Shown here in pieces: positions 1,293 through 46,230 of a stretch of DNA of 64,000 bases. Positions within the stretch are counted from its first letter, which is position 1, and each line of letters opens with the position of its first letter. This stretch comes from an uncultured Bacteroidota bacterium (GTDB lineage: Bacteria; Bacteroidota; Bacteroidia; JADZBD01). The DNA lies in contig CALEYQ010000071.1 of the NCBI GenBank assembly GCA_937924855.1, positions 10,507 to 74,506 of the forward strand, in the 5' to 3' direction. The translations under genes and the position numbers were made by a program. A model generated the notes under the pieces. That model searched no databases. It had not been told where the DNA came from and was given only the letters and a program-made list of their open reading frames with translations.

Positions 1293-1307
1293 ATAAAAAT
1301 CAAACGC

Positions 1308-3429: not shown

Positions 3430-3431
3430 TC

Positions 3432-9760: not shown

Positions 9761-11997
9761 ACCGATAAGCCTAAAAATGTAATATCATCTGTCTGTTCCG
9801 TTTCTCCCATCCAGGAAAGCAATAATTCGCGGAGATCGTTTTCCTGTTGTTGGAATCGAAGTCCCGATTTTGAAAGAGTTTTCATTATTTTTTCTTGTGA
9901 AATTTTCTTTTTAGTAGCCTCCCCTTTTTGATCGGCGAATCCATCGGAGAATAAATAATATTGATCGCCCGGGGCCTTAGAAAAAGTAATTTCCCTGAAA
10001 GTGGTTTCCCCGGAAAGTCCCAGAATTTTCTTTTCTGTTTTAAGGGAAGATAGTTTATCCGGATTATCCTGTTTTCTTATCCAAAGGGGTTGTCTGCAAG
10101 CGGCATAGGTCCCGGTCCCATTTTCTTCGGGTAAATTAATTATGGAAATGTCCATCCCCAACACATCATTGCCATACAGGCTATGTTTCTCAAAAAGGAT
10201 TTGGTTTAATCGGGTTAACAATGCCTCGGGCCGGTGATTTTCCTGAAGCCGGGTTAACTGCTCCAGCATTTCATAGGCTAAAAAAGACATATAAGCCCCG
10301 GGAACACCATGGCCCGTGCAATCAACCACGGCCAGGAGTGTATAGCCCGTAAATTCCTTTACATAATAAAAATCTCCACCAATTTTTTCCTTCGGTTTAT
10401 ACAGAAGAAAGGATTTCCGAACCGGATTTTTAAGTTTTGTCAGATCCGGCAAAAATGATTTTTGAAGTTCATAGCCGAATTGTAACTGACGGATGAGATT
10501 GCCATGAATTTTCTCGGCTTGATTTTTTTTTGATTCTATTTGATGGTTTAACGAGGCAAGTTTGGCTTGTTGCTTCTTTTTTTCGTTAATGGAATAGTAG
10601 AGCAAAAAGCCAAAGCCCGTTACCAGAATGATTAATGCGGCAGAGGAAGCAAGAAACAGATTTTGTTTTTTAATCGCTGATTTTTGATTTTCGATGGACA
10701 GCAGATGCAAGGCATTTTCTTTTTCGAGCAATTCAATTTTATTTTCTTTTTTTTCCGCCTCAAAGGCGGTTTGCATTTCATTCATTTCTTTGCTTCCTCC
10801 GGAACGAAGCAAGCTGTCTTTCAGCCGGGTGTATGCACCAAAATATTCTGCAGCCAGGGCTTGTTTATTGGTGCTCAGGCACAAGCCGTAAAGTTGTTTC
10901 AGGCAATTTGATTTTTGTTCTCTGAGTCCAACCTTTTCGGAAATGGACAAAATTTCCAACAGCAGGTTTTGTTCTTTTTCATAGTTTTTTAATTGGTGGT
11001 AAATTTCCGATTGAACCGTAAGAACTTCGGCCAGGCTGTGCATTTCATTTTTTACTCTGAAATATTGTTCGGCACTTTTAGAATACCGAAGGGCCTCGCC
11101 AAACTCTTCGGTTTCAAGGTAAGCCCGGGCCAAATTGTTGGAAATGGTAGCCAGCCCCTGAAGGTTGTTTATTTTTTTGGAAGCTTGGAACCCTTCTTTG
11201 AAAAAATGAAGTGCCTGGCCGGGTTGTTTCAGTTCCAGATATTGAACGCCCAGGTTTGTATAAAACACTGATAAAATATATAAGTCATTTTCTTTTGAAG
11301 CCAGTTCAATGCCTTCAAGATAAGTTTCGATGGCCAGATCACGGTTTCCGTTTATCCCATACATGAGGGCCATGTTATTGAGGGCAAAAAGAGCTCCACT
11401 GCCATTCCCTGATTTTTTATAATACCGGTAGGCCTGGGTAAAATATTCCAGCGCTTTTTCATGTCGGCCCTGGTAACGGTAAACACTGGCTAAATTGTTA
11501 TAGGTGTTGGCCAATCCGGCCGTATCTTTTTTTTGCAGTTGGAATTTTTTTGCCTGCTCATGTTTTCGAAGGGCCTGGTCATAGTCGCCCATAATAAAAT
11601 GAATGATTCCCATATTGGAAATAACAGAGGCCATGGAAGCGGTATCGTTCAGAACTTTGCGACAGGCAAGTGCCTTTTCATAATAAAATAAAGCGCTGTC
11701 ATATCCACCCTGGAAATGAAAGGATATTCCAATGAGATTCAGGGCAAGTGATTTTCCCCTTAAAAAATTTATTTTTTCACTTAGGAGAAGGGCCTGTTGT
11801 CCATATTTTCGGGCAGAATCTCCGTTGCTTCTTTTATATTCTAAACCCAGGTTTGACAGGGAAATGGCTCTGGTAGTATCGGGAATTTTTTTCCTTAATT
11901 CCTGGCGGATTGAATCTTCTCTTTCCTTATGGGAAGAAAAAACAAAGATTCCGAGGAATGCGATTACCCCAAAAATGTACCTGCTTCGTAAAATCAA
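9757..11997 (-). CDS. transmembrane TPR-repeat protein with C-terminal SpoIIE/RsbU-type PP2C serine phosphatase domain
   Basis: N-terminal TM/signal, about 430 aa of TPR repeats, a second TM (LFLASSAALIILVTGFGFLLYY), a coiled coil, then GGDFYYV and VVDCTGHGVPGA PP2C metal-binding motifs. Confidence 0.85.
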   Translation of the reverse strand: MILRSRYIFGVIAFLGIFVFSSHKEREDSIRQELRKKIPDTTRAISLSNLGLEYKRSNGDSARKYGQQALLLSEKINFLRGKSLALNLIGISFHFQGGYDSALFYYEKALACRKVLNDTASMASVISNMGIIHFIMGDYDQALRKHEQAKKFQLQKKDTAGLANTYNNLASVYRYQGRHEKALEYFTQAYRYYKKSGNGSGALFALNNMALMYGINGNRDLAIETYLEGIELASKENDLYILSVFYTNLGVQYLELKQPGQALHFFKEGFQASKKINNLQGLATISNNLARAYLETEEFGEALRYSKSAEQYFRVKNEMHSLAEVLTVQSEIYHQLKNYEKEQNLLLEILSISEKVGLREQKSNCLKQLYGLCLSTNKQALAAEYFGAYTRLKDSLLRSGGSKEMNEMQTAFEAEKKENKIELLEKENALHLLSIENQKSAIKKQNLFLASSAALIILVTGFGFLLYYSINEKKKQQAKLASLNHQIESKKNQAEKIHGNLIRQLQFGYELQKSFLPDLTKLKNPVRKSFLLYKPKEKIGGDFYYVKEFTGYTLLAVVDCTGHGVPGAYMSFLAYEMLEQLTRLQENHRPEALLTRLNQILFEKHSLYGNDVLGMDISIINLPEENGTGTYAACRQPLWIRKQDNPDKLSSLKTEKKILGLSGETTFREITFSKAPGDQYYLFSDGFADQKGEATKKKISQEKIMKTLSKSGLRFQQQENDLRELLLSWMGETEQTDDITFLGLSV

Positions 11998-12016: not shown

Positions 12017-13033
12017 TCACAGGAAATCTTCCTTGTTTAATTTGAGCCAGTTTAAAGCTGAGCCTGCCAACAACATTTCCATGGTGCCAGAATCTAAACC
12101 CATGGTTTTTATTAGCTGGCCCGGATTATTTTCTCCCAAGGGAAAAGGGTAATCGGATCCGAGAGCAATTTTATCTGCTCCGAATTTTTCAATCAGCACC
12201 TTTAGCATCACCGGGTCGTGAACCAGGCTGTCGAGCCAGAATTTACCGAGGTAGTTTTTGGGCGGAACCGGATTGTCAACCGCCGTAAGGTCCGGACGGC
12301 AATCGAAGCCATGCTGGATTCTTCCGATAGTAGCGGGAAACGAACCACCTCCGTGAGCAAAGGCAATTCTCAATTGAGGAAGGTTTTCCAAAACGCCGGA
12401 AAAAATCAAACTGCAGATGGCTCTTGATGTTTCCGCGGGCATACCTACCAGCCAGGGGAGCCAGTATTTCTGCATATACTCTTCACCCATCATTTCCCAG
12501 GGATGCACCATCACAGCCATAGAAAGTTTTTCGCAGGCCTGAAAAAATTCAAAAAATTCAGGATCACCCAGATTTTTTTGATTGACATTAGAGCCGATCT
12601 GAACGCCCGCGAGTCCAAGCAGTTTGCACCGTTCAAGTTCCTGAATGGCGAATTTAGGATTTTGCAGGGGAACCGTTCCCAATCCTATGAACCGTTTCGG
12701 ATACCGGTCGATAACCGAAGCCATGTGGTCGTTCAGGAATTGAGCAACGCTCAATCCGTGTTCGGGCTTAATCCAATAATTGAACATAACCGGAACAGTA
12801 CTTAAAACCTGAACATGTACCCCTTGATGATTGCAATCCTTAATTCGGGCTTCGGGTTCCCAACAATTTTCTTCAATTTCCCGGAAAAATTTCCCGTCGT
12901 CGCGCATCATTTTTGCACAACAGGGCTTGTGATGTTCCAGATAAATAAACCCGCCGTAGCCGAATTTCTCCTTCCATTTCGGAAGTTCTTTCGGCAAAAT
13001 GTGGGTATGTATGTCGATGGTGAGTAAACTCAT
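12017..13033 (-). CDS. 2-amino-3-carboxymuconate-6-semialdehyde decarboxylase (ACMSD; amidohydrolase-2 family)
   Basis: Near full-length colinear similarity to metazoan/bacterial ACMSD: IDIHTHILPKE, FGYGG, ENCWEPEARI, LSTVPVMF, KYWLPWLVGMPAET, AFAHGGGSFP, LGSDYPFPLGE. Confidence 0.9.
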   Translation of the reverse strand: MSLLTIDIHTHILPKELPKWKEKFGYGGFIYLEHHKPCCAKMMRDDGKFFREIEENCWEPEARIKDCNHQGVHVQVLSTVPVMFNYWIKPEHGLSVAQFLNDHMASVIDRYPKRFIGLGTVPLQNPKFAIQELERCKLLGLAGVQIGSNVNQKNLGDPEFFEFFQACEKLSMAVMVHPWEMMGEEYMQKYWLPWLVGMPAETSRAICSLIFSGVLENLPQLRIAFAHGGGSFPATIGRIQHGFDCRPDLTAVDNPVPPKNYLGKFWLDSLVHDPVMLKVLIEKFGADKIALGSDYPFPLGENNPGQLIKTMGLDSGTMEMLLAGSALNWLKLNKEDFL

Positions 13034-15021
13034 TTTCCTTTTTTTGCGGCTTCCACCTGATTGAATTTGGTAAACCAGGGTTGGGCTTCTTCATTTCTGC
13101 CCATGTTCTGATAGGTGGCGGCAATAAATTTATAGGCCAGGGCGTAATTTTTGTCTACTTCTATGGTTTTCTTGAAATAGTAAATTGCTTTTTCGAATTC
13201 TTTGTTGGCCTCCTCAACCTTCCCCTGAGCCTTCAGGTTCTCACCTACAGTACCGTAAACCGATCCCAAATTGCAGAGGGCATCGTTATATTCGGGATTG
13301 AGTTCAATGGCTTTCTTGAAATAAAATTCCGATTCCACAATTTTTCCTGTGGAGAACAAACAGGTTCCGTAGTTATTGTAATAGGTGGCATTGTTGGCAT
13401 TTAATTCCATGGCTCTTTTATAGGCCACGGCCGCCATTTCGTAATTTTTTATCTCGAAATAAATTTTTCCTACCTGGTTGTGGGCATCCGGAAATTGTTC
13501 CCAGATGGAAAGTGCTTTGGTTAATTCATCAAGGGCCAGTTTTAAGGTGGCTTCCTTTGTTTGAGGGTTCATTACAGCCAGACTGTCTTTGTTGGTTATC
13601 ATATTGGCATGATAAAACAACATATGGGCTGAGTTAGGAACGATTTTGATGTCATTATTAAAGAGGGTCTTTACGGTTTCCCAGTCCTGATTCCTCGACC
13701 ATGTTTTCGCAAAAAAGGGCAGACAAAGGAGTCCGACAACACCGGCAATTTTTGAATTTTGCTGAAAAAAATCACTGATGCCGGAGTAATAGGAATTGTC
13801 TTCCGTTTTAAAGAGGCGACTTAACAAGACAACCACGGCCAGAGCAAAGCCCAAAGAGGGGGCATACAATAAACGGTCGGCCATATTGGTTCCAATTATG
13901 GTAAACAAATTGGAGGCAATAGACATGGTGATGAAGTAAAACAAGATGCAAAAGCTGAGCAGGCTTTTTTCTTTGAATTTTTTAAGGGCAAAAATCAGGA
14001 GGAATAGGTGAACCCCGAGGGAAAGCAGGAACCAGGGGTTGCCAAAAGAAGTTATTATAGGAATGGTATTGTAGGAATAATCGCAGGATAGGGGATGGGG
14101 GAAAATCAGGAGCTTTAAATACAAGCCCAGAATATAAATGGCGGTGGCTTTTTGGTGGGCGACATTATCGGTGGCCATCAGGGAATTATCCACCACCGGA
14201 ACCCTGCCCAGGGATGGACTAAATCCTCCTACCACAGAATAGTGGATAATCAGGTAAAGGGCGGTTACTCCTGCCATGATGATCGAAATCCGGATGAGTT
14301 TTTTCTTAGGGTCTTTGAAAAAGAACCAGATGGCCAGTGGAAAAACAGCGAGATATGTAATGGACGACTCCTTACTAAGCAAACTCAGGAAAAAGCAGAG
14401 GCCGGAAAGCAGGGCAAATTTCATGTCCTCGCTCTTCATATAGCGGTAGATACACCATAATGCTCCGAGCAAAAAGAGGAAGCTCAGAATTTCGTCGCGA
14501 CTTTTGATATTCGCAACTACCTCGGTATGGATGGGATGTACGGCGAAAATCAGGGTGGTTAAAAAAGGGATGATGAGGTTTCCTTTCAGAAATTTATGAA
14601 GCACGAGAAACAGGAGCCAGGCGGTAAAGGCATAGAGCAAAACATTAACCCAATGGCTCAGGGCGGGATTGTCTTCGGAAATGTCCCACTCAATGGCAAA
14701 CATGATCTTGGAAAGAGGTCGGTAGAGTCCGCTTTCGTCATTTCCCGTTCCTGCCCGGTAGGTTGATGTCAGAATTTCGGGAATGGCAGAAACACCCTTT
14801 TGGGTCATTGTATTTTCCTTAATTACCGAAAAGTCGTCGAGAACATATTTGTGGTTAAGGGTATTTGAATAAACAAGGAATGCGATGAAAACCAGGATGA
14901 GGCCGGCGGTTTTTAAGATTTTAGGGCTCCCGGCAGTAGTTGTTTTGGGCTGGGGTGGCTTTGGGGAATTGCTTGCCTCGGAAACCGAGAACTTTTTTTT
15001 CTTTTTGGCCATGGCTCTCAA
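13030..15021 (-). CDS. TMTC-like membrane protein: N-terminal multi-TM GT-C/DUF1736-type domain plus C-terminal TPR repeats (putative protein O-glycosyl/mannosyl-transferase)
   Basis: About 10 predicted TM helices followed by a TPR-rich C-terminus (YKRAMELNANNATYYNNYGTCL...). It is a paralog of 21596-23227, and its stop overlaps the ACMSD start by 4 nt. Confidence 0.75.
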   Translation of the reverse strand: MRAMAKKKKKFSVSEASNSPKPPQPKTTTAGSPKILKTAGLILVFIAFLVYSNTLNHKYVLDDFSVIKENTMTQKGVSAIPEILTSTYRAGTGNDESGLYRPLSKIMFAIEWDISEDNPALSHWVNVLLYAFTAWLLFLVLHKFLKGNLIIPFLTTLIFAVHPIHTEVVANIKSRDEILSFLFLLGALWCIYRYMKSEDMKFALLSGLCFFLSLLSKESSITYLAVFPLAIWFFFKDPKKKLIRISIIMAGVTALYLIIHYSVVGGFSPSLGRVPVVDNSLMATDNVAHQKATAIYILGLYLKLLIFPHPLSCDYSYNTIPIITSFGNPWFLLSLGVHLFLLIFALKKFKEKSLLSFCILFYFITMSIASNLFTIIGTNMADRLLYAPSLGFALAVVVLLSRLFKTEDNSYYSGISDFFQQNSKIAGVVGLLCLPFFAKTWSRNQDWETVKTLFNNDIKIVPNSAHMLFYHANMITNKDSLAVMNPQTKEATLKLALDELTKALSIWEQFPDAHNQVGKIYFEIKNYEMAAVAYKRAMELNANNATYYNNYGTCLFSTGKIVESEFYFKKAIELNPEYNDALCNLGSVYGTVGENLKAQGKVEEANKEFEKAIYYFKKTIEVDKNYALAYKFIAATYQNMGRNEEAQPWFTKFNQVEAAKKGK

Positions 15022-15075
15022 AAGTAAGAAATCGGACCGGATTTAAAAGCGGAAAAGAAAGCAATAAATCTGTTT

Positions 15076-17064
15076 TTGCACTACCGGCATAAACCTATAT
15101 TTGCAGGAACGGCCCCTGGCAGTTTAAGGGGATCTTCAGTAATATTACATCCGGCCAAAGTACTTGTTTCCATGAGCATCATAATCGAAAAATTCGAAAC
15201 CGAATTCAGTAAGTTACAGAGTCCGGAAGAACAGGTAGATGCTATACTGGCTTTTTCGCTCAATTACCTGGAATCGAAAAGAGAATATTGCCTGGAAAGG
15301 GCGAAAGCGGCTATGGAAATTTCCCTCAAAAGCAACTACAGGGATGGCATAGTGCTTTCAAAATTTCTGAACGCCTTTCTGCTTAACGAATACCATGAAT
15401 ATGCCAAAGCCGAATCGGAGCTCAGAGATGCGATTTCAGGTTTTGATTCCTTGAAATCGATACGCGCAAAGGTTATTGCTTCTAATTTTCTGAGTTATTT
15501 TTTATGGTATATGGGTCGGTTTGATGAAGCCCTCTCTGTTATTTACAAAGCCCTTGAAATTACCGCCGATGTGGAAGATCCTCAGCCTGTTGGATGGGTA
15601 CATTATGCACTGGGAACCTTTCATCACGACCTAAATGATTTTTCACAAAGCCGGACCTATTTTGAAAAGGCTCTTGCCTTTTTTGAGAAAGCCAAATACC
15701 CCTATGGAATGGGCAGGAGTAAGAACGGGCTTGCCTCTCTCTTGATCCGGGAGGGAAAATACACTGAAGCCCGTGCTATACTTGAGGAATTGCTGGTTCT
15801 TTACCGTAACCTTGAAATGTCGGCTGCGGAAGGACGAACCCTCAGCGACCTTGGCGACATAGAATTTCGGGAAGGCCGGTTTGAGGACGCATATTCCCTT
15901 TTCCGGGAAGCTCTTGATCTCAGGCGGAGAATAAATCACAAACAAGGCAAAACTACCTCCCTCATTCAGGTAGCCCAATGCCTTTTTGAACTTGGAAAAA
16001 CCGATGAGGCTGAAAAAATAATTGCCGAAGGCCTTGAGATGGCCCGCGAAACGAATACCCGTGTCAAGCAAGCCCAATGCCTTCATCTTTTATACCGGAT
16101 TCATAAATCTAAGGGACAACCCGGCGAGGCCCTGACCTATATGGAAAAATTTTATGAGATTCGCTCTCAGGTTTATGGTGACCAGTCCGCAAACAGAATA
16201 AAACAGATTCAAGCGGCTCATGCCTCTGCCTCGGCCCGGAAAGATGCGGAAATTGAACGCCTGAAAAACGTTGAACTAAAACAAGCCCACGATCAAATCC
16301 GGGAAAAAAACAAGGAGATTCTCGATAGCATTACCTATGCCCGCCGCCTCCAGGATGTGATACTTCCTGCCGAGACGGAAATTGAAAAATCATTTAAAGA
16401 GGCTTTTGTTTTGTATCAGCCCAAAGATATCGTTGCGGGCGATTTCTATTGGTTTCACCGGCAAAACGACTTTGTTTATTTTGCACTGGCCGACTGTACC
16501 GGACACGGGGTTCCGGGTGCTTTGGTAAGCCTCATTTGTCACAACGCCCTGAACCGGGCCCTGCTGGAATATAAAATGGAAAGTCCGGGTGCTATTTTGG
16601 ATAAAACCCGGGAGGTGGTTACCGGTTTTTTTGGTAAAGGAAATCAGCATGTCAGAGACGGTATGGACATAGGGTTGTTTCGATATCATCCTCCTTCCCG
16701 TGAACTTGTAATTTCTTCGGCCAATATTTCATTCTGGATTTTTAATTCGCCCAATAATCTTCCTGAGAAAATTTCCGGACAAAAACAACCGGTTGCTTTT
16801 TTTGAGAACCCAAAACCCTTTTCAGAGCTCCGGATTAAAACCGGACAAGGCACAAGGATTTATGTTTCCTCGGATGGTTATTTCGATCAGTTCGGAGGAC
16901 CGGCAGGGAAAAAACTGAAATCCGGGAATTTTTCAAAGATTTTGGGAGGTATACAGGGGCAGTCCCTGGACCGGCAAAGGGAAGAACTCCGGCAGAAATT
17001 TTTGGAATGGAAGGGAAGCCTTGAGCAGATAGATGATGTTTGTGTTGCGGGATTCACCTTTTAA
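15076..17064 (+). CDS. cytoplasmic TPR-repeat protein with C-terminal SpoIIE/RsbU-type PP2C phosphatase domain
   Basis: TPR repeats, a coiled coil, AGDFYWF and ALADCTGHGVPGA motifs, and no TM segment. The true start may be the internal ATG at 15172 (MSIIIEKF). Confidence 0.85.
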   Translation: MHYRHKPIFAGTAPGSLRGSSVILHPAKVLVSMSIIIEKFETEFSKLQSPEEQVDAILAFSLNYLESKREYCLERAKAAMEISLKSNYRDGIVLSKFLNAFLLNEYHEYAKAESELRDAISGFDSLKSIRAKVIASNFLSYFLWYMGRFDEALSVIYKALEITADVEDPQPVGWVHYALGTFHHDLNDFSQSRTYFEKALAFFEKAKYPYGMGRSKNGLASLLIREGKYTEARAILEELLVLYRNLEMSAAEGRTLSDLGDIEFREGRFEDAYSLFREALDLRRRINHKQGKTTSLIQVAQCLFELGKTDEAEKIIAEGLEMARETNTRVKQAQCLHLLYRIHKSKGQPGEALTYMEKFYEIRSQVYGDQSANRIKQIQAAHASASARKDAEIERLKNVELKQAHDQIREKNKEILDSITYARRLQDVILPAETEIEKSFKEAFVLYQPKDIVAGDFYWFHRQNDFVYFALADCTGHGVPGALVSLICHNALNRALLEYKMESPGAILDKTREVVTGFFGKGNQHVRDGMDIGLFRYHPPSRELVISSANISFWIFNSPNNLPEKISGQKQPVAFFENPKPFSELRIKTGQGTRIYVSSDGYFDQFGGPAGKKLKSGNFSKILGGIQGQSLDRQREELRQKFLEWKGSLEQIDDVCVAGFTF

Positions 17065-17082
17065 ATTATCCGACATTCTCCT

Positions 17083-19230
17083 TTGATTTGTACCTTAGTA
17101 TCCGGTATGCGGATATTCCTGGTATTGTTTTTTATTCTCCCCTTTTTTTCCAATCAGGCATTGCGCTCACAAACGCGGAAAATTGATAGCTTGAAAATTG
17201 CTTTTGAAAATCAACCCGACGATACCAACAAAATAAGAACCGGCAACACTCTGATTTGGGACTTAAAAGATTTTGACCCGTCCAAAGGTATTGAGATTGG
17301 AGAAAGGGTAATGGAGCTTGCAAAAAAGCTGAACCACAAAAGGGGCCTTGCATTTTGTTATAACAATCTGGCGGTAATATATCTCGATAAGGGAGATTAT
17401 CAGCAATCGCTGAAATATAATACCTGGTCGCTGGAAATTAAAAAGGAATTGAAACTGAAGGATAAAATTCCGGGTAGCCTCAACAATATAGGATTGGTAT
17501 ATAAAAACATAGGCGAGTACGACAAAGCCTTGTCGTTTTATTTTGAAGCCCTTAAAGTAAACGAAGAACTCAGGAATAAGAAATGGATTGCCACAAACCT
17601 TTCCAATATTGCCATTGTATATAAGGAAATGAAAAACTTTGAAAAGGCAGATGAGTATTACAAGCAAGCTTTAAAGGTTATTGATCCAAAGGAAGAGCCT
17701 GCCCAGTTTATGAATATTAATACCGGGCTGGGTAATTTATTCCTTCAAAAAAAGGAATATAAAAAGGCTATGGAGCACTATAGGAAAATTGAGGATTTTC
17801 TTGAGGAGAATCCCAATCCCAGGAGTGAAGCCATTAATTATTCAAACATGGGCCTGGTTTATAACGGGGAAAGGAATCATGAAAAGGCGCTTGAATATTT
17901 TCATAAGGCCCTGAGTATTTCCGAACGGCTCGGGGAAAAGACCAAGGTGGCTCTGCTTTCTGCAAACCTGGCCTCGGTTTATCTGGGCAAAAGGAAGTAC
18001 CACGAAGCAAAAAAGTACGCTCAAAATTCTTTGGATTTAGCGCGGGCACTTTATGCCAGAAAGGAAATTTCTCTTGCCCTGGAGTATCTGGCCAAAGCCC
18101 AATACGGATTGGGAGCATATAAAGAAGCCTATGAAAATATGGAAGAATTCGCCTTGTATAATGACTCACTCCAAAAAACCGACAGGGAAAGCCGTTTTGC
18201 TGAGGTAGAGGCTCGTTACAAAATAAAAAACAGGGAACTGGAAATTGAAAATCTCCAAAAAGAGAATTTGCTGAAGGAATCTGAATTGCGATTTAAAGAA
18301 GATTCACTCCGCAAACAAAACATTTTAGTGCTCACCTTCGCCCTCGGGTTTATTATTACCGGTGTAATGGCCTGGTTTATTTTCCGGGGTTATAAAGCCA
18401 AAACGGAAGCTCATAAAATTATCAGTCGCCAAAAGGAAATTGTTGATCAGAAAAACAACGAAATTCTGGATTCCCTGACCTATGCCAAGCGACTGCAGGA
18501 TGCTATTTTGCCTACACCTAACGAGATTAACCGGTTTTTCCCTGGTCATCAGTTGTTTTACCTCCCCAAAGATGTGGTGGCCGGCGATTTTTTCTGGGTG
18601 GATGAAAAAAACGATAATGGTGGGAACCCGGTATATTATTTTGCCGTAGCCGATTGTACGGGCCACGGTGTTCCCGGTGCCCTCGTAAGCGTGGTGTGTT
18701 CCAATGCCCTGCACCGCTCCCTGCATGAATTCAAAAAAATAAAGCCTGATGAATTGCTGGAAAAATGCCGGGATCTGGTTATTGAAACCTTCGAAAATTC
18801 CGAATCCCAGGTTCATGATGGAATGGATATTTCCGTGCTTGCTTTTAATTCTGCCACCCGCGAGATTCAATGGGCCGGAGCCAACCGTCCTTTATGGGTT
18901 TCCTTGAAAAAGGAAAACGGGAAAATAAAATCCTTTGCCCCCGATAAACAATCTGTTTCTTCCGGTGAAATGCGTAATCCTTTCACCCTTCACACTTTTT
19001 CTCCGGATCAGGGCGACCGTATTTTTTTGTTCACCGATGGTTTCGCCGATCAGTTCGGTGGACCTGAAGGAAAAAAGTATAAAACCAAAAACCTGAAACG
19101 CTTTCTGGAGAATTCCTTCAACAATCCCTTTACAGTAATGGGAAAAAGAATAAATGAAGAATTTTCAGGATGGAAAGGAAAATACGACCAGGTTGATGAT
19201 GTTTGTGTGTTCTGTTTTGAAATATCCTGA
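17083..19230 (+). CDS. transmembrane TPR-repeat protein with C-terminal SpoIIE/RsbU-type PP2C phosphatase domain
   Basis: Signal/TM N-terminus, TPRs, a second TM (ILVLTFALGFIITGVMAWFIF), AGDFFWV and AVADCTGHGVPGA motifs. Same architecture as 9757-11997. Confidence 0.85.
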   Translation: MICTLVSGMRIFLVLFFILPFFSNQALRSQTRKIDSLKIAFENQPDDTNKIRTGNTLIWDLKDFDPSKGIEIGERVMELAKKLNHKRGLAFCYNNLAVIYLDKGDYQQSLKYNTWSLEIKKELKLKDKIPGSLNNIGLVYKNIGEYDKALSFYFEALKVNEELRNKKWIATNLSNIAIVYKEMKNFEKADEYYKQALKVIDPKEEPAQFMNINTGLGNLFLQKKEYKKAMEHYRKIEDFLEENPNPRSEAINYSNMGLVYNGERNHEKALEYFHKALSISERLGEKTKVALLSANLASVYLGKRKYHEAKKYAQNSLDLARALYARKEISLALEYLAKAQYGLGAYKEAYENMEEFALYNDSLQKTDRESRFAEVEARYKIKNRELEIENLQKENLLKESELRFKEDSLRKQNILVLTFALGFIITGVMAWFIFRGYKAKTEAHKIISRQKEIVDQKNNEILDSLTYAKRLQDAILPTPNEINRFFPGHQLFYLPKDVVAGDFFWVDEKNDNGGNPVYYFAVADCTGHGVPGALVSVVCSNALHRSLHEFKKIKPDELLEKCRDLVIETFENSESQVHDGMDISVLAFNSATREIQWAGANRPLWVSLKKENGKIKSFAPDKQSVSSGEMRNPFTLHTFSPDQGDRIFLFTDGFADQFGGPEGKKYKTKNLKRFLENSFNNPFTVMGKRINEEFSGWKGKYDQVDDVCVFCFEIS

Positions 19231-19232
19231 AT

Positions 19233-20177
19233 ATGCGGCAGCTATTTGTTTGCTTTTATAGTGTTTTGTTTTTCGCAGCCTGCGGACCTCCCAAATCCAA
19301 CCGCCTTCCGGTTCCCACCCAACCCTTTATTACCGTGCTGGGTATTGCACAGGATGCCGGATATCCACAGGCAGGCTGTAATAAAACCTGTTGTGCCGCC
19401 TACTGGTCAGGCATCAGGCCCAAAGCTATGGTGGCATCGCTGGGTATTGTTGATCCTGTCAGCGGACAAAAATGGCTGATTGATTGCACGCCTTCGTTTC
19501 CGGAACAATGGTATCGCATGGAGATGCTTCTCCCCGAAAAGACCTGGAGCGGTATTTTTTTAACCCATGCCCACATGGGACATTATGCCGGCCTCCTGCA
19601 CCTGGGTCGTGAAGCCATGAACGCGCAGAAGATGCCCGTATTTTGCGATTCTGTTTTTGCCCGCTTCCTTGAAACGAATGGGCCTTTTTCGCAGTTGGTA
19701 AAACTGGAAAACATCGTTCTGCATCCCATTATGCCGGATCAAACCCTTACCCTGAACGAAAGGATTTCCATAACCCCATTTACCGTACCTCACCGGGATG
19801 AATTTTCCCCCACTTTCGGTTACCGGATTTCTTCCGCAGGAAAAAAAATTATTTTTATTCCTGATATCGATAAATGGGAAAAATGGGATTCGGATATTGT
19901 TCAATGGGTTAAAGAGAACGACCTTCTTTTTTTAGACGGCACCTTTTTCCGGGAAGGTGAAATTCCGGGCCGAAACATGTCTGAAATTCCGCATCCTTTT
20001 GTTTCTGAAACCATGCAGCTAATGGCAAAACTTCCCCCTGAAGAAAAGCAAAAAATCCATTTCATCCATTTTAATCATACCAACCCACTGATTTTTCCCG
20101 ACAGCCCCGAAACGGAAGAAATAAAAAAAGCGGGCTTTAATTGTGCCCGCGAAGGAATGATGTTCGAACTGAATTAA
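19233..20177 (+). CDS. MBL-fold metallo-hydrolase (PqqB-like), predicted lipoprotein
   Basis: Lipobox FFAACG and a metallo-beta-lactamase motif THAHMGHYAG. Its stop shares a TTAA with the convergent downstream gene. Confidence 0.7.
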   Translation: MRQLFVCFYSVLFFAACGPPKSNRLPVPTQPFITVLGIAQDAGYPQAGCNKTCCAAYWSGIRPKAMVASLGIVDPVSGQKWLIDCTPSFPEQWYRMEMLLPEKTWSGIFLTHAHMGHYAGLLHLGREAMNAQKMPVFCDSVFARFLETNGPFSQLVKLENIVLHPIMPDQTLTLNERISITPFTVPHRDEFSPTFGYRISSAGKKIIFIPDIDKWEKWDSDIVQWVKENDLLFLDGTFFREGEIPGRNMSEIPHPFVSETMQLMAKLPPEEKQKIHFIHFNHTNPLIFPDSPETEEIKKAGFNCAREGMMFELN

Positions 20178-20698
20178 ACCGGTTTGGATGGGGGCTCCAT
20201 AACATGCCCGCACTTTTTACAGGTTCTAAGTTCCTCAGAACCATAAAACTCGGCAAAGGTTTCCTGAAACTGGGTCATGATATTGGTAAGCTGGAACTTT
20301 TTCTCGTAAAGTTTTTCATTGCATTTTTCACAAAACCACATCAGTCCGTCTTTTTCTCCCTCCCGGCGTTTGCGCTCCATTACCAGGCCAATGGTATTGG
20401 CACCGCGTTTGGGATTGTGGGGTACTTTGGGAGGCAATAAGAAAATATCCCCCTCTTTAATGGTTACCTCAACGGCTTTCCCGTTTTCCTGTAATCCCAC
20501 ATTTATATCACCCTCCAGCTGATAAAAAAACTCCTCACTTTCGTTGTAATGGTAGTCCTTTCTGGAGTTTGGTCCTCCCACCACCATTACAATAAACTCG
20601 GTGTCTTCATAAACAACTTTGTTGCCAACGGGGGGCTTAAGCAAATGACGGTTTTCGTCGATCCACTTTTTGAAATTAAATGGTCTTTGTATGGGCAT
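20174..20698 (-). CDS. 3-hydroxyanthranilate 3,4-dioxygenase
   Basis: Colinear similarity to HAAO/NbaC: GGPNSRKDYH, EEFFYQLEGD, GDIFLLPPKVPHNPKR, ANTIGLVMERKR, and a C-terminal CxxC...CxxC rubredoxin-like site. Confidence 0.9.
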   Translation of the reverse strand: MPIQRPFNFKKWIDENRHLLKPPVGNKVVYEDTEFIVMVVGGPNSRKDYHYNESEEFFYQLEGDINVGLQENGKAVEVTIKEGDIFLLPPKVPHNPKRGANTIGLVMERKRREGEKDGLMWFCEKCNEKLYEKKFQLTNIMTQFQETFAEFYGSEELRTCKKCGHVMEPPSKPV

Positions 20699-20815
20699 TT
20701 TATGTTTACTTTAAATACCAAGATACTTACTTTGAGGCGTATTTAAAAATATTGGAATCATTTTTTAAATGGCGATTGGTTTATACAAGGGAGTAATATT
20801 TCCTAACTTAGTGGG

Positions 20816-21601
20816 ATGGATTTGAATTTAAAAGGTAAAACGGCCCTTGTCTGCGGAAGCACCCAGGGAATCGGTAAGGCCTGTGCCCTGGAACTGGCCG
20901 GCCTGGGCGCAAGGGTTATTCTGATGGCCCGCAACACGGAAGCCCTGGAGGAAGTTCTGAAAGAACTGGATACCATTTCACGGCAAATTCACGGGTTTCT
21001 TGTTGCTGATTTTTCAAACCCCGGCCAGGTTAAAGATGCCATTCAGTCTTTTGTCAAGGGAAACCCGGTTCATATTCTGGTAAATAATACCGGAGGTCCT
21101 CCGGGCGGCCCTGCTGAATCCGCACCCGCCGAGGAATTTACCAAAGCCTTTTCCGCCCATCTGCTTTGCAACCATCACCTGATGCAGGCGGTTGTTCCCG
21201 GAATGAAGAGCAAACAATACGGCCGTATTATTAATATTATTTCTACTTCCGTAAAACAGCCCCTTAAAGGATTGGGTGTTTCAAACACCGTTAGAGGCGC
21301 AGTTGCCAACTGGAGTAAAACCCTTGCAGGAGAACTTGGCAGGTATGGTATTACCGTGAATAATGTGCTTCCCGGAGCCACCCTCACCGGTCGCCTTTCT
21401 TCCATCATTGAAACCCGTGCCGGAAAGGAAGGTCTTTCCAAAGATGAAATATCCCGTCACTTTTTAGAGGAAATTCCTATGGGAAGGTTTGGAAATCCGG
21501 AAGAGATTGCGGCTGCTGTAGCTTTTCTTGCTTCACCCGCTGCGGCCTATATCAACGGAATAAATCTTCCGGTTGACGGGGGACGAACCGGTTGCTTATA
21601 A
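20816..21601 (+). CDS. SDR-family oxidoreductase
   Basis: TALVCGSTQGIGKA Rossmann motif, NNTGG, and the short-chain dehydrogenase fold. Confidence 0.8.
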   Translation: MDLNLKGKTALVCGSTQGIGKACALELAGLGARVILMARNTEALEEVLKELDTISRQIHGFLVADFSNPGQVKDAIQSFVKGNPVHILVNNTGGPPGGPAESAPAEEFTKAFSAHLLCNHHLMQAVVPGMKSKQYGRIINIISTSVKQPLKGLGVSNTVRGAVANWSKTLAGELGRYGITVNNVLPGATLTGRLSSIIETRAGKEGLSKDEISRHFLEEIPMGRFGNPEEIAAAVAFLASPAAAYINGINLPVDGGRTGCL

Positions 21602-23227
21602 TCCGGCCTTCTTTTTTGCAACTTCTTCTTTCAGCACCCTGATAAATTCAGGATCTACCGGATATCCCAGTTCCTGTGCCTTCAATGCATCGGACAACGC
21701 AGCTTCATAATTTCCTGCCGTAAACCAGGTGCCTGCCCTGTTATGCCAGGCTTGTTTTAAATTCGGATTCAGTTTAATTGCCGTGGAATAGTCTTCAATG
21801 GCTTCATTCAGTTTTCCCTGATAATAATGAGCCAGTCCCCGGTTATAATACGCATCGGGGTAATCCGGTTTCAGGGCAATGGCTTTGTTGAGGTAAAAAA
21901 TTCCCTGATCGTAATTTTTTTCAAGATTGTACGCATCGCCGAAATTATTGTAAATCTTAGGCGAACGCTGGTCTTTTTTCTCGGCATCGGTCCATAAAGT
22001 AATGCTGTCTTTCCAGATTTTTATGCGTTCGCCGGTAAGCCATGTTAGAAGTGCAAGAAAAAAACAGGCCAGCACCACCGGAACTTTATTGCCGGGCATT
22101 TTTTTATCACGCCAGGTAACCAATAACGAGAAAATGGCAAACCCAAGTCCAATATGCGGAAGGTAACTGTAACGGTCGGCCATTACGGCGCCACCCACGG
22201 GTAATAGTTGCAAAACAAGAATGGCCGTAATCAGGAAAAACCCCCCACCAAAAACCAAATCCCGGTTCCCACGGTACTTAAAAACGAGAAATGTTAGGCC
22301 CGCAACAACCACAGGGGCTAAATAGTAAAGGGGTCCCATTTCACCTTTCACAGGAAAGGAATAAAAGCAGGACAGGTTTACGGGCGCAAAAAATTTTGCC
22401 ACATACATCATCACGCCGTAACAGGCAAACAAAATGCGTTCTCCTAGATGATACATGTCGTTGCCCTGAATGGCTTCAAATTCTTTTTGAGCTTCAATGG
22501 CCCGTAGTCCGAAATATACCGAAAGGGCAAAAAGAGGAATTTTTTCCAAAAACATCTTTTTATAATCCCGTCTTCCCATATACCAGTCGCAAAGTAATAA
22601 TGCTAATGGAAGGGTAACGGTAACGGCTTTCGAGAACAGGCCCCCGAGAAAAAGCGTTGCGGTAAGCACCCAGGCCACAAGATCTTTGCCTTGTTTTCTG
22701 AAATACACCCAGCTTACCAATGCGCCCAGATAAAATAAAGAGTAAAGCACATCTTTTCTTTCTGCCGCCCAGGCAACGCTCTCTACATGCATGGGATGCA
22801 GGGCAAAGGCGGCTGCCGTGAGGGTAGCGACCAGATTATTGCCCGACAAAAAATAAAGGAACAGATAAACAAGCAGGGCGTTGAAAATATGCAACCACAT
22901 ATTGGTCCGGTGAAAAGGAAGAGGATCTGTTTCGCCCGTAACGGGATCAAACGCCGATTGATAATTCCAGGCCAGGGTAAGCATGGTTAAGGGATGAAAG
23001 TTTCCCATAACATGAGGTTTTTCCACAAAATGTTTTTTAAAGGAAGCGTCCGCCAGATCCTTATTGTAAGTAATGTATTCCTGATCGTCCCAATTGGTGA
23101 GTTTGTTTTTCAGAGAGGGTTGATAGATCAGCCAGGTAGCGGCAAGGACTAATAAAATCCCCAGCCAGGCTTGCTTTCCGGGCAGGCTTTTCTTTTCAGT
23201 TTTTTTAAGGGGCGTTTTTTTTCCCAT
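21596..23227 (-). CDS. TMTC-like membrane protein with C-terminal TPR repeats (paralog of 13030-15021)
   Basis: Multi-TM N-terminal domain plus C-terminal TPRs (YNRGLAHYYQGKLNEAIEDYSTAIKLNPN). Confidence 0.75.
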   Translation of the reverse strand: MGKKTPLKKTEKKSLPGKQAWLGILLVLAATWLIYQPSLKNKLTNWDDQEYITYNKDLADASFKKHFVEKPHVMGNFHPLTMLTLAWNYQSAFDPVTGETDPLPFHRTNMWLHIFNALLVYLFLYFLSGNNLVATLTAAAFALHPMHVESVAWAAERKDVLYSLFYLGALVSWVYFRKQGKDLVAWVLTATLFLGGLFSKAVTVTLPLALLLCDWYMGRRDYKKMFLEKIPLFALSVYFGLRAIEAQKEFEAIQGNDMYHLGERILFACYGVMMYVAKFFAPVNLSCFYSFPVKGEMGPLYYLAPVVVAGLTFLVFKYRGNRDLVFGGGFFLITAILVLQLLPVGGAVMADRYSYLPHIGLGFAIFSLLVTWRDKKMPGNKVPVVLACFFLALLTWLTGERIKIWKDSITLWTDAEKKDQRSPKIYNNFGDAYNLEKNYDQGIFYLNKAIALKPDYPDAYYNRGLAHYYQGKLNEAIEDYSTAIKLNPNLKQAWHNRAGTWFTAGNYEAALSDALKAQELGYPVDPEFIRVLKEEVAKKKAGL

Positions 23228-23282: not shown

Positions 23283-24242
23283 ATGAAAACTATTTTGTTT
23301 TTAGTCCAGTTTGGCTCATTTACGGCTTTCTCTCAGCCTTATTTTTATATGCCTGCCCTGGGCACCTATCAAGCCCTTTCCGGGGAAACGGTTTTTTCTT
23401 CAACCACTCCCTGGTCGCCCTTTCAAACTTTCATTGTTCCCCTGGGTTTTACCTTTCAGTATATGGGAACAAATTATACCTCCATTCGGGTGGAAGGAAG
23501 TGGTTTTACTTATTTCGATGCAAACTATTACCATTTGTTAAATCCCTTTACGGTTCAGTTGCGTGACCGGGGAACTTCTACGCCAACTTCACTAAGTCCC
23601 CTTTCATATAAAATGGAAGGAAGCGCTCCTAACCGCATTGGAAAAATTCAATGGGCCAACTGTTCTTTTGCAGGTGATACGGCTTCAAATGTGAATTTTC
23701 AACTCTGGCTGTTTGAAGGCAGCAATCATGTGGAAGTACATATGGGGCCCTCAACCATTGTAAATCCCTCCGCAGCCTATTCAGGAAACGGAAGCCCGGG
23801 ACCACTCATTGGCTTGTTTAAATATACTTCGGCATCTAATTGTTCCTATAGTCTTTCGCTTTATGGACCGGCCTCCAATCCTCTGGACACCAACCGGACC
23901 GGAAACATTAATTTTTTTGGGCTCACCCTTAATGGTACTCCGTCATCCGGTAGTATTTTTAAATTTTTTCCGGGATCACTGGGGATGGATGATTTGTCCG
24001 AAGAAAAAATCTTCTTTTTTCCTAATCCTTCCACGGGAACAATACAATTTAACTCAGGAAGCGCAGAGCCGGTGGTAATCCGCATTTATTCAGGCACAGG
24101 ACAAAAGCGGTATGAAGGAGTGATAAATCTCTCAGAGAATTTTAGAATTCCTGAAGATATAGGTTCGGGAATTTATTTTTTGGAGGCGGTGGGAACCGAT
24201 GCGGTGTGGCTCCGTAAAAAGCTGATTCTGGTCCGGGAGTAA
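23283..24242 (+). CDS. secreted hypothetical protein with T9SS C-terminal sorting domain
   Basis: Signal peptide and a C-terminal ~80-aa Por/T9SS CTD (FFFPNPSTGTIQF...GIYFLEAVG). Confidence 0.7.
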   Translation: MKTILFLVQFGSFTAFSQPYFYMPALGTYQALSGETVFSSTTPWSPFQTFIVPLGFTFQYMGTNYTSIRVEGSGFTYFDANYYHLLNPFTVQLRDRGTSTPTSLSPLSYKMEGSAPNRIGKIQWANCSFAGDTASNVNFQLWLFEGSNHVEVHMGPSTIVNPSAAYSGNGSPGPLIGLFKYTSASNCSYSLSLYGPASNPLDTNRTGNINFFGLTLNGTPSSGSIFKFFPGSLGMDDLSEEKIFFFPNPSTGTIQFNSGSAEPVVIRIYSGTGQKRYEGVINLSENFRIPEDIGSGIYFLEAVGTDAVWLRKKLILVRE

Positions 24243-24953
24243 CTACAGGTTTTTATTTACCAGAAGACGAAAACCTTTTCCGTGAATGTTTAATATTTCA
24301 ACACGGGGATCGTCTTTCAGGTATTTCCGGAGTTTGGTAATATAAACATCCATGCTTCGGGCATTGAAGTAGGAGTCATCGTTCCAGAGTTTTTTCAGGG
24401 CATAATTGCGATCCAATCCTTCGGTGCGGTGCAGGCAAAGCAATTTCAGAAGATCGCTTTCCCGGGTAGTAAGTTTTTTTGATTGCCCTTTCAGGCTCAG
24501 CTGATGGGTGTCGGAATCGAAAGTAAAATTACCGATTTCAAATTGTGTTTCCTGTTCTTCCTTATTGGGGTTCCCACCCGAACGCCGCAAAATGGCCTCT
24601 ATCCGCAGGAGTAATTCCTCCATGCTGAAGGGTTTGGTTACATAATCATCGGCCCCGGCGCGAAATCCTTCAATGGCATCTTCTCTCAGGGCCCTTGCGG
24701 TGAGAAAAACAAGGGGAATTTCGGCATTTGTTTTTCTGATTTCTTTGGCCAGGGTAAACCCGTCCATTACCGGCATCATTACATCCAGAATACAAATGTT
24801 GAAAGCTTCGCTATTAAATGCCCGAAAGGCATCTTTTCCGTTTTCGGCCAGGTGAACACGATAATCTTTCGCTTCCAGATAATCTTTCAGCAGGCTGCCC
24901 AGGTTGGGATCGTCTTCCGCCAGGAGAATATGGGCTTTGGTGCCTGAACTCAT
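24243..24953 (-). CDS. OmpR-family response regulator transcription factor
   Basis: Receiver domain (ILLAEDDPNLGSLL, D...K) plus a winged-helix C-terminus (DVYITKLRKYL). Confidence 0.88.
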   Translation of the reverse strand: MSSGTKAHILLAEDDPNLGSLLKDYLEAKDYRVHLAENGKDAFRAFNSEAFNICILDVMMPVMDGFTLAKEIRKTNAEIPLVFLTARALREDAIEGFRAGADDYVTKPFSMEELLLRIEAILRRSGGNPNKEEQETQFEIGNFTFDSDTHQLSLKGQSKKLTTRESDLLKLLCLHRTEGLDRNYALKKLWNDDSYFNARSMDVYITKLRKYLKDDPRVEILNIHGKGFRLLVNKNL

Positions 24954-33260: not shown

Positions 33261-34064
33261 ATGAGCTTTGCGGAAGCGGTGGTGCTTGCCATCATTGAAG
33301 GTCTTTCCGAATTCCTGCCCATATCTTCCACCGGACACATGATTATCGGGTCGACCCTGATGGGCATTGCCTCTGATGATTTTGTGAAATTATTTACCGT
33401 TGCCATTCAGTTTGGAGCCATCCTCTCGGTTATTGCACTCTATTACAAACGCTTTTTCCGCTCCTTTGATTTTTATTTTCGCCTGGGTGTTGGTTTTATC
33501 CCCGCAGCCATTGCCGGCCTGCTCCTGAAAAAACACATCGATGCCCTGCTTGAAAATGTTTTGGTGGTGGGGATTGCTCTTTTTGCAGGGGGGATAATTT
33601 TTCTGTTTATCGACAAATGGTTTCCCGGTAAGGATGACAAGGAAGAGCCCGAAACGGAAGTGCCCTACAGTTCGGCATTTATCATTGGTTGTTTTCAGGT
33701 GATTGCCATGATTCCCGGGGTGTCGCGATCGGCCGCTACCATCATTGGAGGATTAACGAGAGGACTGAGCCGGAAAAGAGCCGCTGAATTTTCATTCTTT
33801 CTAGCGGTTCCCACCATGTTTGCAGCTACCTGTAAATCCTTGTACGATTATATCAAAGACGGCGGCAGTTTTACCTCCGAACACCTGAATCTATTTCTGG
33901 TTGGAAATGCCGTTGCCTTTATTGTGGCTGCCATTGCCATTAAATCGTTTATTGCCTTTCTGAATAACCACGGATTTAAAGCCTTTGGCTATTACCGCCT
34001 GGTGGTGGGCGGTTTAATTATTGCCCTTTTCTATATGGGTGTGAACCTTCGTATCATTGACTGA
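33261..34064 (+). CDS. uppP: undecaprenyl-diphosphatase
   Basis: [16 protein letters not shown] motif and a BacA-family membrane topology. Confidence 0.88.
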
Positions 34065-46225: not shown

Positions 46226-46230
46226 GGCGG

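Follow-up and report, generated by a model that had tools for sequence, protein, structure and literature searches.

The window analysed here, a stretch of 64,000 nucleotides from an uncultured Bacteroidota bacterium, carries two genes, A and B, that each encode a multi-pass membrane protein with C-terminal TPRs, and the question raised by this locus is what the two proteins do and whether they act together with the TPR-PP2C phosphatases encoded nearby, as had been proposed in an initial annotation. Both open reading frames were found as annotated, at 13030-15021 (gene A) and 21596-23227 (gene B), and both genes, with all the features within them given below, lie on the minus strand. The mechanical reading frame of gene A opens at a TTG at 15021, and the ATG at 15012 (MAKKKKK...) is most likely the true start, because the database twin of the protein (P0001, about 100% identical) is 660 aa long; gene A is thus placed at 13030..15012 and encodes a predicted TMTC-like GT-C glycosyltransferase of 660 aa that ends in TPRs. 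Gene B (21596..23227) encodes a 543-aa protein, a divergent GT-C glycosyltransferase of the PMT clan that also ends in TPRs, to which P0121 is about 100% identical. The JGI annotation of both proteins is "protein O-mannosyl-transferase".

The AF2 models (pLDDT 91.2 and 94.6 for genes A and B, respectively) showed that each protein has a membrane domain of 11 TM helices and, at its C-terminus, TPRs. In gene A, the AF2 helix list places the membrane domain, with periplasmic loops EL1 to EL5, at aa 30-443 (13684..14925) and it is followed by a TPR domain of about 5-6 repeats at aa 447-659 (13036..13674). In gene B, the membrane domain by the same criterion spans aa 18-404 (22016..23176), and a TPR domain of about 3 repeats plus capping helices follows at aa 408-542 (21602..22006; Pfam TPR at aa 424-520, and AF2). 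The sidedness of the TPRs was assigned by the positive-inside rule, under which the Lys-rich N-termini would be cytoplasmic and the odd number of TM helices would put five loops and the TPR domain in the periplasm.

The two proteins were 24% identical over about 620 columns (BLASTP, E=2e-21), their membrane domains alone matched each other at E=2.4e-20 (phmmer), and comparison of the two family profiles with hhalign gave a probability of 100% with E=5e-70. Judged from these alignments, A and B are homologous well beyond chance, yet distant. Both families are very large, with more than 6,000 matches for A and more than 3,700 for B, and the superfamily comprises 53,098 representative clusters; the matches for which the source named an organism were Bacteroidota in both families. 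Other genomes carry arrays of paralogues, with up to 7 copies in one locus (L023). The presence of several paralogues per genome suggests, by analogy with TMTC1-4 and PMT1-7, that the individual copies may be specialised for different acceptors.

The family profiles separated the two genes. The protein of gene A matched PF08409 (TMTC_DUF1736) with 35.7 bits against a cut-off of 27, covering positions 11-74 of the 75 in the profile, as well as PMT_2 (PF13231) with 27.8 bits against a cut-off of 26.1, and these two families were matched by 65 and 33 of 73 A-family members, respectively. For gene B, no Pfam match was obtained in the membrane part; PF08409 did not match it even at E=0.01, was outside the 25 most-matched Pfam families of 76 B-family members, and was missing from the precomputed Pfam lists of 120 homologues, while PMT_2 was matched by 15 of the 76 members. 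Neither protein reached the threshold of PF02366 (PMT), which three homologues of gene B passed (P0142 with 45.5 bits, P0145 with 32.2 bits and P0122 with 23.9 bits, cut-off 22.7). The proposal that both proteins are of the DUF1736 type, to be checked with PF08409 and PMT_2, therefore stood for gene A and failed for gene B: on its sequence, A is a genuine TMTC/DUF1736-type protein, and the only one of the two.

The TMTC motifs M1 to M7 were scored as defined previously, and in that work the Lys of M4 is proposed as a phosphate ligand and its Glu as a metal ligand (PMC7801869). Invariance of residues was judged across 73 A-family and 76 B-family homologues. An acidic pair of the kind predicted for the first periplasmic loop was found in both proteins 7-8 residues past TM1, namely the putative catalytic Asp-Asp D59-D60 of gene A (M1, EL1; 14833..14838), invariant in 73 members, and W46-D47-D48 of gene B (EL1; 23084..23092), invariant in 76 members. 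M2 (SHKSYRP, EL1) is partial in both, being Y97-R98-P99 in gene A, where the His-Lys is not conserved, and N76-x-H78-P79 in gene B. M3 (RxD, EL2) corresponds to a shifted R172-D173-E174 in gene A and to R157-K158-D159 in gene B, and M6 (PxxP, TM9) is absent from both. In gene A, M4 (KE(T/Q)xxT, EL3) is present as K214-E215-S-S-I-T219 (14356..14373) with K214 and E215 invariant; the DUF1736 loop, EL4 between TM7 and TM8 (aa 275-338, 13999..14190, the PF08409 match), has D275-N276 and D311 invariant, with D311-Y312 as the counterpart of the TMTC "DW" of M5 in which Trp is replaced by Tyr; and M7 ((E/D)RxxY, EL5) is present as D379-R380-L-L-Y383 (13864..13878) with R380 invariant.

In gene B, the segment S199-K200-A201-V-T-V-T (22613..22633) is profile-aligned to the KES of gene A, with K200 invariant and A201 opposite E215, so that the Lys of M4 is retained and the Glu is replaced. 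EL4 is shorter in the B family than in gene A, and its segment P282-V-N-L-S-C-F288-Y-S-F-P292 (22352..22384) places F288-Y289 at the position of D311, the Phe being nearly invariant in the B family. M7 lies in the EL5 segment V344-G345...D351-R352-Y-S-Y355 (22163..22198), of which V344, G345, R352 and Y355 are invariant. The invariant set of the B family thus includes W-D-D, HPMHVESV, ERKD, K200, R352 and Y355 in 76 members down to 35% identity. From these alignments, the B family is a sister family in which both proposed metal ligands are replaced (Glu to Ala, Asp to Phe). The AF2 model helices place the invariant motif residues of both proteins in periplasmic loops.

With a multi-pass membrane domain that contains the conserved GT-C helical core and with conserved acidic residues in the first extracytoplasmic loop, both proteins share features of the GT-C superfamily, and the placing of 11 TM helices ahead of TPRs, which are predicted to be periplasmic, agrees with that of TMTCs. 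PDB sequences were searched by phmmer with the membrane region of A, and with a profile of B made from the TM parts of 11 sequences, and neither search gave a meaningful match; full-length queries of A and B returned only TPR proteins. The possibility that A and B are transporters, which the initial annotation had named as a way to overturn its assignment, was rejected: no profile or fold match of the membrane parts to a transporter family was found, and the GT-C loop residues are present.

Among known systems, the closest parallel is with the animal TMTC1-4 (CAZy GT105; Pfam TMTC_DUF1736 plus TPRs), which O-mannosylate cadherins and share with both proteins an 11-TM GT-C domain followed by non-cytoplasmic TPRs and with gene A also DUF1736, the DD of M1, the YRP of M2, KExxT (M4), the EL4 Asp (M5) and (D/E)RxxY (M7). 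In comparison to TMTC1-4, A and B are bacterial, have far fewer TPRs, lack M6 and do not conserve the His-Lys of M2; A has "DY" for "DW", neither the DUF1736 signature nor the Glu of M4 or Asp of M5 is present in B, and both would take their sugar from a bacterial polyprenyl phosphate instead of dolichyl-P-Man. The PMT family (GT39; yeast Pmt1/2/4 and Mycobacterium Rv1002c), also protein O-mannosyltransferases, has in common with A and B the acidic pair in loop 1, and some B-family members pass Pfam PMT as given above; A and B differ in having 11 TM helices, against about 12, and in carrying a C-terminal TPR domain in place of the MIR beta-trefoil. No Pfam match to MIR was found in A or B, whose AF2 models are all-helical except for a few strands or bridges of 2-3 residues and have no loop big enough for a beta-trefoil. 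ArnT (GT83), the undecaprenyl-phosphate-L-Ara4N:lipid A transferase, is a bacterial inner-membrane GT-C using an Und-P-monosaccharide, as proposed for A and B, and differs from them in having a lipid acceptor and no TPR domain; neither protein retrieved it in the PDB sequence searches. Full-length TMTC-like proteins of prokaryotes were noted by Eisenhaber et al. 2021, for example AMJ42_05695 of a deltaproteobacterium, which like A and B has a predicted sugar transferase followed by TPRs and is known from sequence only, whereas the named matches of the A and B families are Bacteroidota. The initial annotation was also correct that the bacterial members are uncharacterised, since no experimental characterisation of bacterial TMTC/DUF1736/GT105 proteins was found in the searchable literature.

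Gene A belongs to a recurrent kynurenine-gene block of HAO, A and ACMSD. The start of the ACMSD gene (2-amino-3-carboxymuconate-6-semialdehyde decarboxylase; 12017..13033, minus strand; human ACMSD 2wm1 with E=6e-129 and 434 bits) and the stop of gene A share 4 bp, suggesting that the two genes are probably co-transcribed, and the order of A then ACMSD was also found in the locus of one relative (L001), and 8 of 80 loci showed it. HAO (3-hydroxyanthranilate 3,4-dioxygenase; 20174..20698, minus strand; NCBIfam NF009763 with 273 bits, cut-off 220) is conserved next to the A-type genes of related genomes, on their upstream side. Both neighbours are context and not part of the enzyme of gene A. 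De novo clustering of the neighbours in 80 family-A loci identified only SDR, HAO, ACMSD and ALDH as recurring, all within a sub-clade, together with clade-specific fatty-acid genes; a glycosylation partner conserved across the loci, for instance a flippase or polyprenyl-P-sugar synthase, was not found. Scans of the 8-27 kb region gave 33 sigma-70 promoters in comparison to 31.4 in shuffled sequence, and 28 intrinsic terminators in comparison to 27.4, and were left out of the operon calls. The window also holds an LPS-core-like GT2/GT9/GT4 cluster and a Wzy_C gene.

Taking these results together, we consider it probable (about 0.6) that A and B are inner-membrane GT-C glycosyltransferases which use a polyprenyl-P-sugar donor and periplasmic protein acceptors, and their most likely role is O-glycosylation of periplasmic proteins, probably mannosylation, from a polyprenyl-phosphate sugar. 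We infer the polyprenyl-phosphate donor from the invariant Lys and Arg that occupy the places of the modelled phosphate ligands of TMTCs; the Lys after TM5 (K214 in A, K200 in B) and the Arg in the loop after TM9 (R380 in A, R352 in B) would grip the phosphate of a polyprenyl (undecaprenyl)-phosphate-monosaccharide. The Asp-Asp past TM1 would be the catalytic or acceptor-activating site, the TPR domain would recruit the acceptor, for which Ser/Thr residues in proteins of the periplasm or envelope are the likeliest choice, and the sugar, presumably mannose by analogy, would be transferred with inversion. In gene A, the E215/D311 pair could form a divalent-metal site as proposed for TMTCs, while gene B probably works without that site, or on another donor or acceptor. 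This reading has to be held against the absence of M6 and the only partial M2 in both proteins, the loss of the M4 Glu and M5 Asp in B, the lack of a solved structure detectable by sequence and of a glycosylation gene among the conserved neighbours, and the fact that biochemical evidence for bacterial members was not found in the searchable literature.

An alternative that we regard as unlikely is that A and B glycosylate a non-protein acceptor such as lipid A, LPS core or O-antigen, capsule or exopolysaccharide, in the way of ArnT, Gtr-type GT-Cs or Aft/Emb, and that the TPR domain merely docks the enzyme to envelope-assembly partners. Eisenhaber et al. found that, among solved structures, ArnT is the nearest to the membrane domains of TMTCs, which would be consistent with such an acceptor, and so would the polysaccharide genes of the window, but no polysaccharide gene was a conserved neighbour in the 80 loci, and the top Pfam families for the membrane parts were all protein O-mannosyltransferases (DUF1736/TMTC, PMT, PMT_2). 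In addition, among the GT-C families compared, the family that has the TPR fusion in common with A and B is TMTC, which modifies proteins, and the TPR-bearing eukaryotic OGT/SPY, which are not GT-C enzymes, likewise modify proteins.

It seems quite improbable that gene B is a catalytically impaired paralogue that pairs with or regulates an active enzyme (A, for instance), much as PMTs form obligate heterodimers, or that serves as a TPR chaperone or scaffold. The family-wide replacement of both proposed metal-binding acids is what would be expected of such a protein, as is the location of A and B within a few kb of each other in the window, L001/L003 and L015. These substitutions are, however, old and family-wide, and the remaining active-site set is invariant in the 76 members noted above, which indicates selection on catalysis; furthermore, PMT-type enzymes are not known to need a bound metal, and B-type genes were found without an adjacent A-type gene (L085-L087).

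As for the phosphatases, the two paralogues were said to flank their cluster, which is true only loosely: gene A is divergently adjacent to a TPR-PP2C pair at 15076-19230, gene B is three genes away from that pair, behind an MBL hydrolase, the 3-hydroxyanthranilate dioxygenase and an SDR, and a third TPR-PP2C at 9757-11997 lies outside the A-B interval. A and B might still be coupled to these proteins, for example with the periplasmic TPR sensor domains as glycosylation targets, given that two of the three are ordered signal/TM segment, TPRs, TM helix and PP2C, so that their TPRs would face the periplasm, that the 9757-11997 protein has 7 D(S/T)(A/I/L/V/M/T) motifs, 4 of them spaced by about one TPR unit (aa 60, 100, 118 and 158), that TPR proteins are frequently O-glycosylated in Bacteroidota (PMC10897501), and that a TPR-SpoIIE gene follows ACMSD in L001 and lies beside a B orthologue in L087. 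This coupling is very improbable and the functional link drawn initially is not conserved, because any PP2C within 10 kb was found in just 1 of 80 family-A loci, the nearest relative lacks the PP2C pair between A and HAO, with A abutting the MBL gene, distant B orthologues stand beside unrelated genes (IspG, a CpeT-like gene), and D(S/T)X motifs would be targets of the general glycosylation system regardless of neighbours; the adjacency is a lineage-specific gene order, a local accident.

The preferred reading of A and B as periplasmic protein O-glycosyltransferases bears on a wider problem. [quoted passage not shown] A 2025 review stated that the OTase, core flippase and ligase "remain undiscovered", noted that the core begins with a hexose (mannose), and advised seeking homologues of eukaryotic O-mannosylation enzymes (PMC12871550); we likewise found no identified Bacteroidota O-OTase in the searchable literature. 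Bacterial O-mannosyltransferase homologues with periplasmic protein-binding TPRs are obvious candidates for the missing enzyme. That A-type and/or B-type TPR-GT-C proteins are the initiating transferases of this phylum-wide system, passing mannose from Und-P-Man to the Ser/Thr of D(S/T)X in the periplasm as the reducing-end residue, would be compatible with the very large families with Bacteroidota as named matches, the predicted periplasm-facing TPRs and the conserved catalytic set; we consider it rather unlikely, as the paralogues and tandem arrays suit acceptor-specific enzymes better than one general enzyme. If A and B are only acceptor-specific modifiers, they would be an ordinary part of envelope biogenesis, and if they are the initiating transferases, the pathway would be mechanistically akin to eukaryotic O-mannosylation and not to en-bloc transfer of the PglL type. 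In either case, the locus contributes one bona fide TMTC-type gene with its ligand residues intact and one sister family with a remodelled active site, together with specific residues, and a contrasting pair of enzymes, that knock-outs and in-vitro assays can address.

Both minus-strand reading frames that the initial annotation had taken for paralogous TMTC-like proteins were present in the ORF listing. For gene A, at 13030-15012 (-), the ATG at 15012 (MAKKKKK...) is preferred to the TTG at 15021 with which the listing begins, and its database twin (P0001, 660 aa) is about 100% identical; gene B, at 21596-23227 (-), encodes 543 aa and also has a twin (P0121) that is about 100% identical. Pfam places C-terminal TPRs in both, and NCBIfam gave sub-threshold TPR matches only. 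Gene A matched TMTC_DUF1736 with 35.7 bits (cut-off 27, aa 275-338) and PMT_2 with 27.8 bits (cut-off 26.1), and no Pfam match was found in the first ~400 residues of gene B. By sequence comparison the two are distantly related: BLASTP gave E=2e-21 with 24% identity across about 620 columns (E=2.4e-20 for the membrane parts alone), and hhalign of the family profiles (73 and 76 sequences) gave E=5e-70 with a probability of 100% over 573 columns. No further A/B paralogue was found within the window.

The AF2 models built from the family alignments had a pLDDT of 91.2 and a pTM of 0.87 for gene A, and 94.6 and 0.93 for gene B. A full-length Foldseek query returned TPR matches only; the fold matches of gene B were ALG12 (15.5), Pmt4 (15.1), STT3B (14.7), PglB (14.5), Pmt2 (14.4), ArnT (14.3) and AftB (12.6). 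No transporter family occurred among the profile and fold matches to the membrane parts of either protein, by which a transporter identity was ruled out. Comparison of the model helix lists with the TMTC topology of Eisenhaber et al. (PMC7801869) gave 11 TM helices in both; the membrane-parallel helix of periplasmic loop EL4 corresponds to the hydrophobic one that follows TM7 (A 284-303, B 261-280). Since the N-termini are lysine-rich and the number of TM helices is odd, the TPR domains are probably periplasmic.

The seven TMTC motifs (M1-M7) defined by Eisenhaber et al. (PMC7801869) were read from the invariant columns of both family alignments and checked against window coordinates. M1 (DD, EL1) is invariant in both, as D59-D60 in A and W46-D47-D48 in B. 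For M2 (SHKSYRP) only Y97-R98-P99 is found in A and N76-x-H78-P79 in B; M3 (RxD, EL2) reads HPIHTEVVANIKSR172-D173-E174 in A and HPMHVESVAWxxER157-K158-D159 in B, and M4 (KE(T/Q)xxT) reads K214-E215-SSIT and K200-A201-VTVT. M5 (DW, EL4) is D311-Y312 in A and F288-Y289 in B, M6 (PxxP) is absent from both, and M7 (ERxxY, EL5) is D379-R380-LL-Y383 and D351-R352-YS-Y355. In gene A the putative catalytic Asp pair, the Lys and Arg that would bind phosphate and the two proposed metal ligands are all retained; gene B retains the Asp pair, Lys and Arg, with both proposed metal ligands replaced, a replacement fixed throughout the B family, in which F288 is nearly invariant. The GT-C catalytic-loop residues, whose absence had been held to speak against the assignment, are thus present in both as an invariant Asp pair. 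In its essentials the initial observation is right. The TMTC assignment stands for gene A, with its TMTC_DUF1736 match and kept motifs, while gene B can be placed at superfamily level only. What is shown for both proteins is the fold, the topology and the residue conservation.

Both genes belong to very common, unstudied families, with B as a divergent variant. The search with the A membrane part reached more than 6,273 proteins, a lower bound, typically of about 650 aa and nearly all with PF08409 and TPRs, and DUF1736 was matched in 65 of 73 sampled members. The B membrane part matched at least 3,753 proteins; in exhaustive phmmer it reached 53,098 representative clusters at E<=1e-3, of which 6,613 also passed E<=1e-30; PF08409 was found in 0 of the 120 B-family proteins listed, PMT_2 in 15 of 76 sampled and PMT in a few. 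An A-type gene occurs in at least 593 species-level genomes of the collection scanned, labelled Bacteroidota almost throughout (a few apparently mis-binned), the best among the matches listed being only 51% identical. JGI already labels both genes 'protein O-mannosyl-transferase', and many uncharacterised prokaryotes have full-length TMTC-like proteins according to Eisenhaber et al. Tandem A/B-type paralogues were seen at 6 of 80 A-type loci, all in other Bacteroidota genomes: L023 (1-13644), where as many as seven copies fill 13.6 kb, and L022, L029, L033, L057 and L071. Such arrays suggest that the genes diversify rapidly, possibly in the acceptors they recognise.

Along the A/B strand the window order is HK, RR, a T9SS-tail ORF on the other strand, B, SDR(-), 3-hydroxyanthranilate dioxygenase (HAO), MBL(-), two TPR-PP2C(-), A, 2-amino-3-carboxymuconate-6-semialdehyde decarboxylase (ACMSD), TPR-PP2C, orf394 and AsnB-like. 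In the nearest relative, whose A is 54% and whose B is 61% identical, the order reads HK, RR, B, ABC, orf, SDR(-), HAO, MBL(-), A, ACMSD and TPR-SpoIIE. The interleaving of A and B with TPR-PP2C genes is not kept there, the two PP2C genes between A and HAO being missing, and the functional link to the phosphatases drawn from it is not supported: only 1 of 80 A-type loci has any PP2C within 10 kb. Because of this scarcity and absence, the PP2C association is limited to this small clade. The embedding of A in kynurenine/3-HAA catabolic genes is older. The amidohydrolase downstream of A is ACMSD (12017-13033, E=6e-129 to the human enzyme), whose start overlaps the A stop by 4 bp; SDR(-)/HAO/A/ACMSD recurs at 8 of 80 A-type loci and in the nearest relative, and an aldehyde dehydrogenase frequently lies upstream on the other strand. 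The loci with this block (window 12017-15012 and 20174-21601) are L001, L012, L015, L016, L017, L019, L021, L027 and L032. In the eight syntenic loci identity to the window is 60-86% for the metabolic enzymes but only 40-44% for A. No glycosylation gene was a conserved neighbour of A-type genes at the 80 loci. HK-RR precedes the B orthologue in two relatives, in one of which TPR-SpoIIE adjoins B, and IspG precedes it in two more distant ones.

Several other genes were recorded in the window. The kynurenine genes ACMSD, HAO (20174-20698) and kynureninase (34801-36081) are scattered over 23 kb, and ACMSD scored 434 bits to the human versus 230 bits to the Pseudomonas enzyme. The PqqB-like MBL-fold hydrolase (19233-20177; TIGR02108 119 bits, cut-off 245) is convergent with HAO with a 4-bp overlap, and holds the same place in L001 and in 0 of 80 other A-type loci. 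A HisKA kinase and an OmpR-type response regulator lie 21-34 bp upstream of B orthologues on the same strand in L003 and L087; in the window (23283-26470) a 319-aa opposite-strand ORF with a T9SS C-terminal sorting domain stands between regulator and B. Three TPR-SpoIIE/PP2C paralogues lie within 10 kb (9757-11997, 15076-17064, 17083-19230), two with the order signal/TM segment, TPRs, TM helix and PP2C, which makes the TPRs of these two periplasmic sensors; no TM helix is seen in the 15076 ORF, whose start is uncertain. In the 9757 protein 7 motifs of the O-glycosylation type D(S/T)(A/I/L/V/M/T) occur, and the spacing of four of them (aa 60, 100, 118, 158) is close to one repeat unit. The 394-aa ORF at 8576-9760, with a signal-like N-terminus, one TM helix, no Pfam match and faint similarity to the PP2C paralogues only, shares 4 bp with the TPR-PP2C gene before it and is followed by the AsnB-like (GATase_7) gene; in L001 this position is taken by a 593-aa TPR protein. 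At 300-6616 lies an arginine-biosynthesis-like operon (argC/D/F/B/E/H-like: semialdehyde dehydrogenase, class-III aminotransferase, carbamoyltransferase, amino-acid kinase, M20 deacylase, lyase).

As for function, family resemblance points to the donor, sugar and acceptor: A and B would transfer the sugar with inversion, on the periplasmic side, from a polyprenyl-phosphate-sugar donor. Lys and Arg would engage the phosphate of the donor and the Asp-Asp pair the acceptor, proteins would be chosen as acceptors by the TPRs, and only A would have a metal site. A BacA/UppP undecaprenyl-diphosphate phosphatase (33261-34064, 256 bits), about 10 kb from B and adjoining FtsX and TruB, with the same genes near B in L003, recycles the lipid carrier on which such GT-C enzymes would depend. 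Within 44457-48863 a GT2/GT9/GT4 cluster resembling LPS-core genes adjoins an opposite-strand 524-aa Wzy_C gene (47289-48863) of the WaaL/PglL family (O-antigen ligase/PglL-type O-oligosaccharyltransferase), a rival candidate for transferring O-glycans to proteins in this organism.

Our literature search found no paper on a characterised bacterial TMTC/DUF1736/GT105 protein. The O-OTase of general O-glycosylation in Bacteroidota was called unknown by Veith et al. 2022, and a 2025 review (PMC12871550) states that OTase, core flippase and ligase 'remain undiscovered', gives the reducing-end sugar as a hexose (mannose) and advises seeking homologues of eukaryotic O-mannosylation. As the field is still without a transferase and the review points to such homologues, the A and B families are testable candidates for it; their many paralogues speak for enzymes that are each specific to certain acceptors. 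The A and B genes are ordinary in Bacteroidota, yet they bear on the open transferase question, and the contrast between them is experimentally useful.
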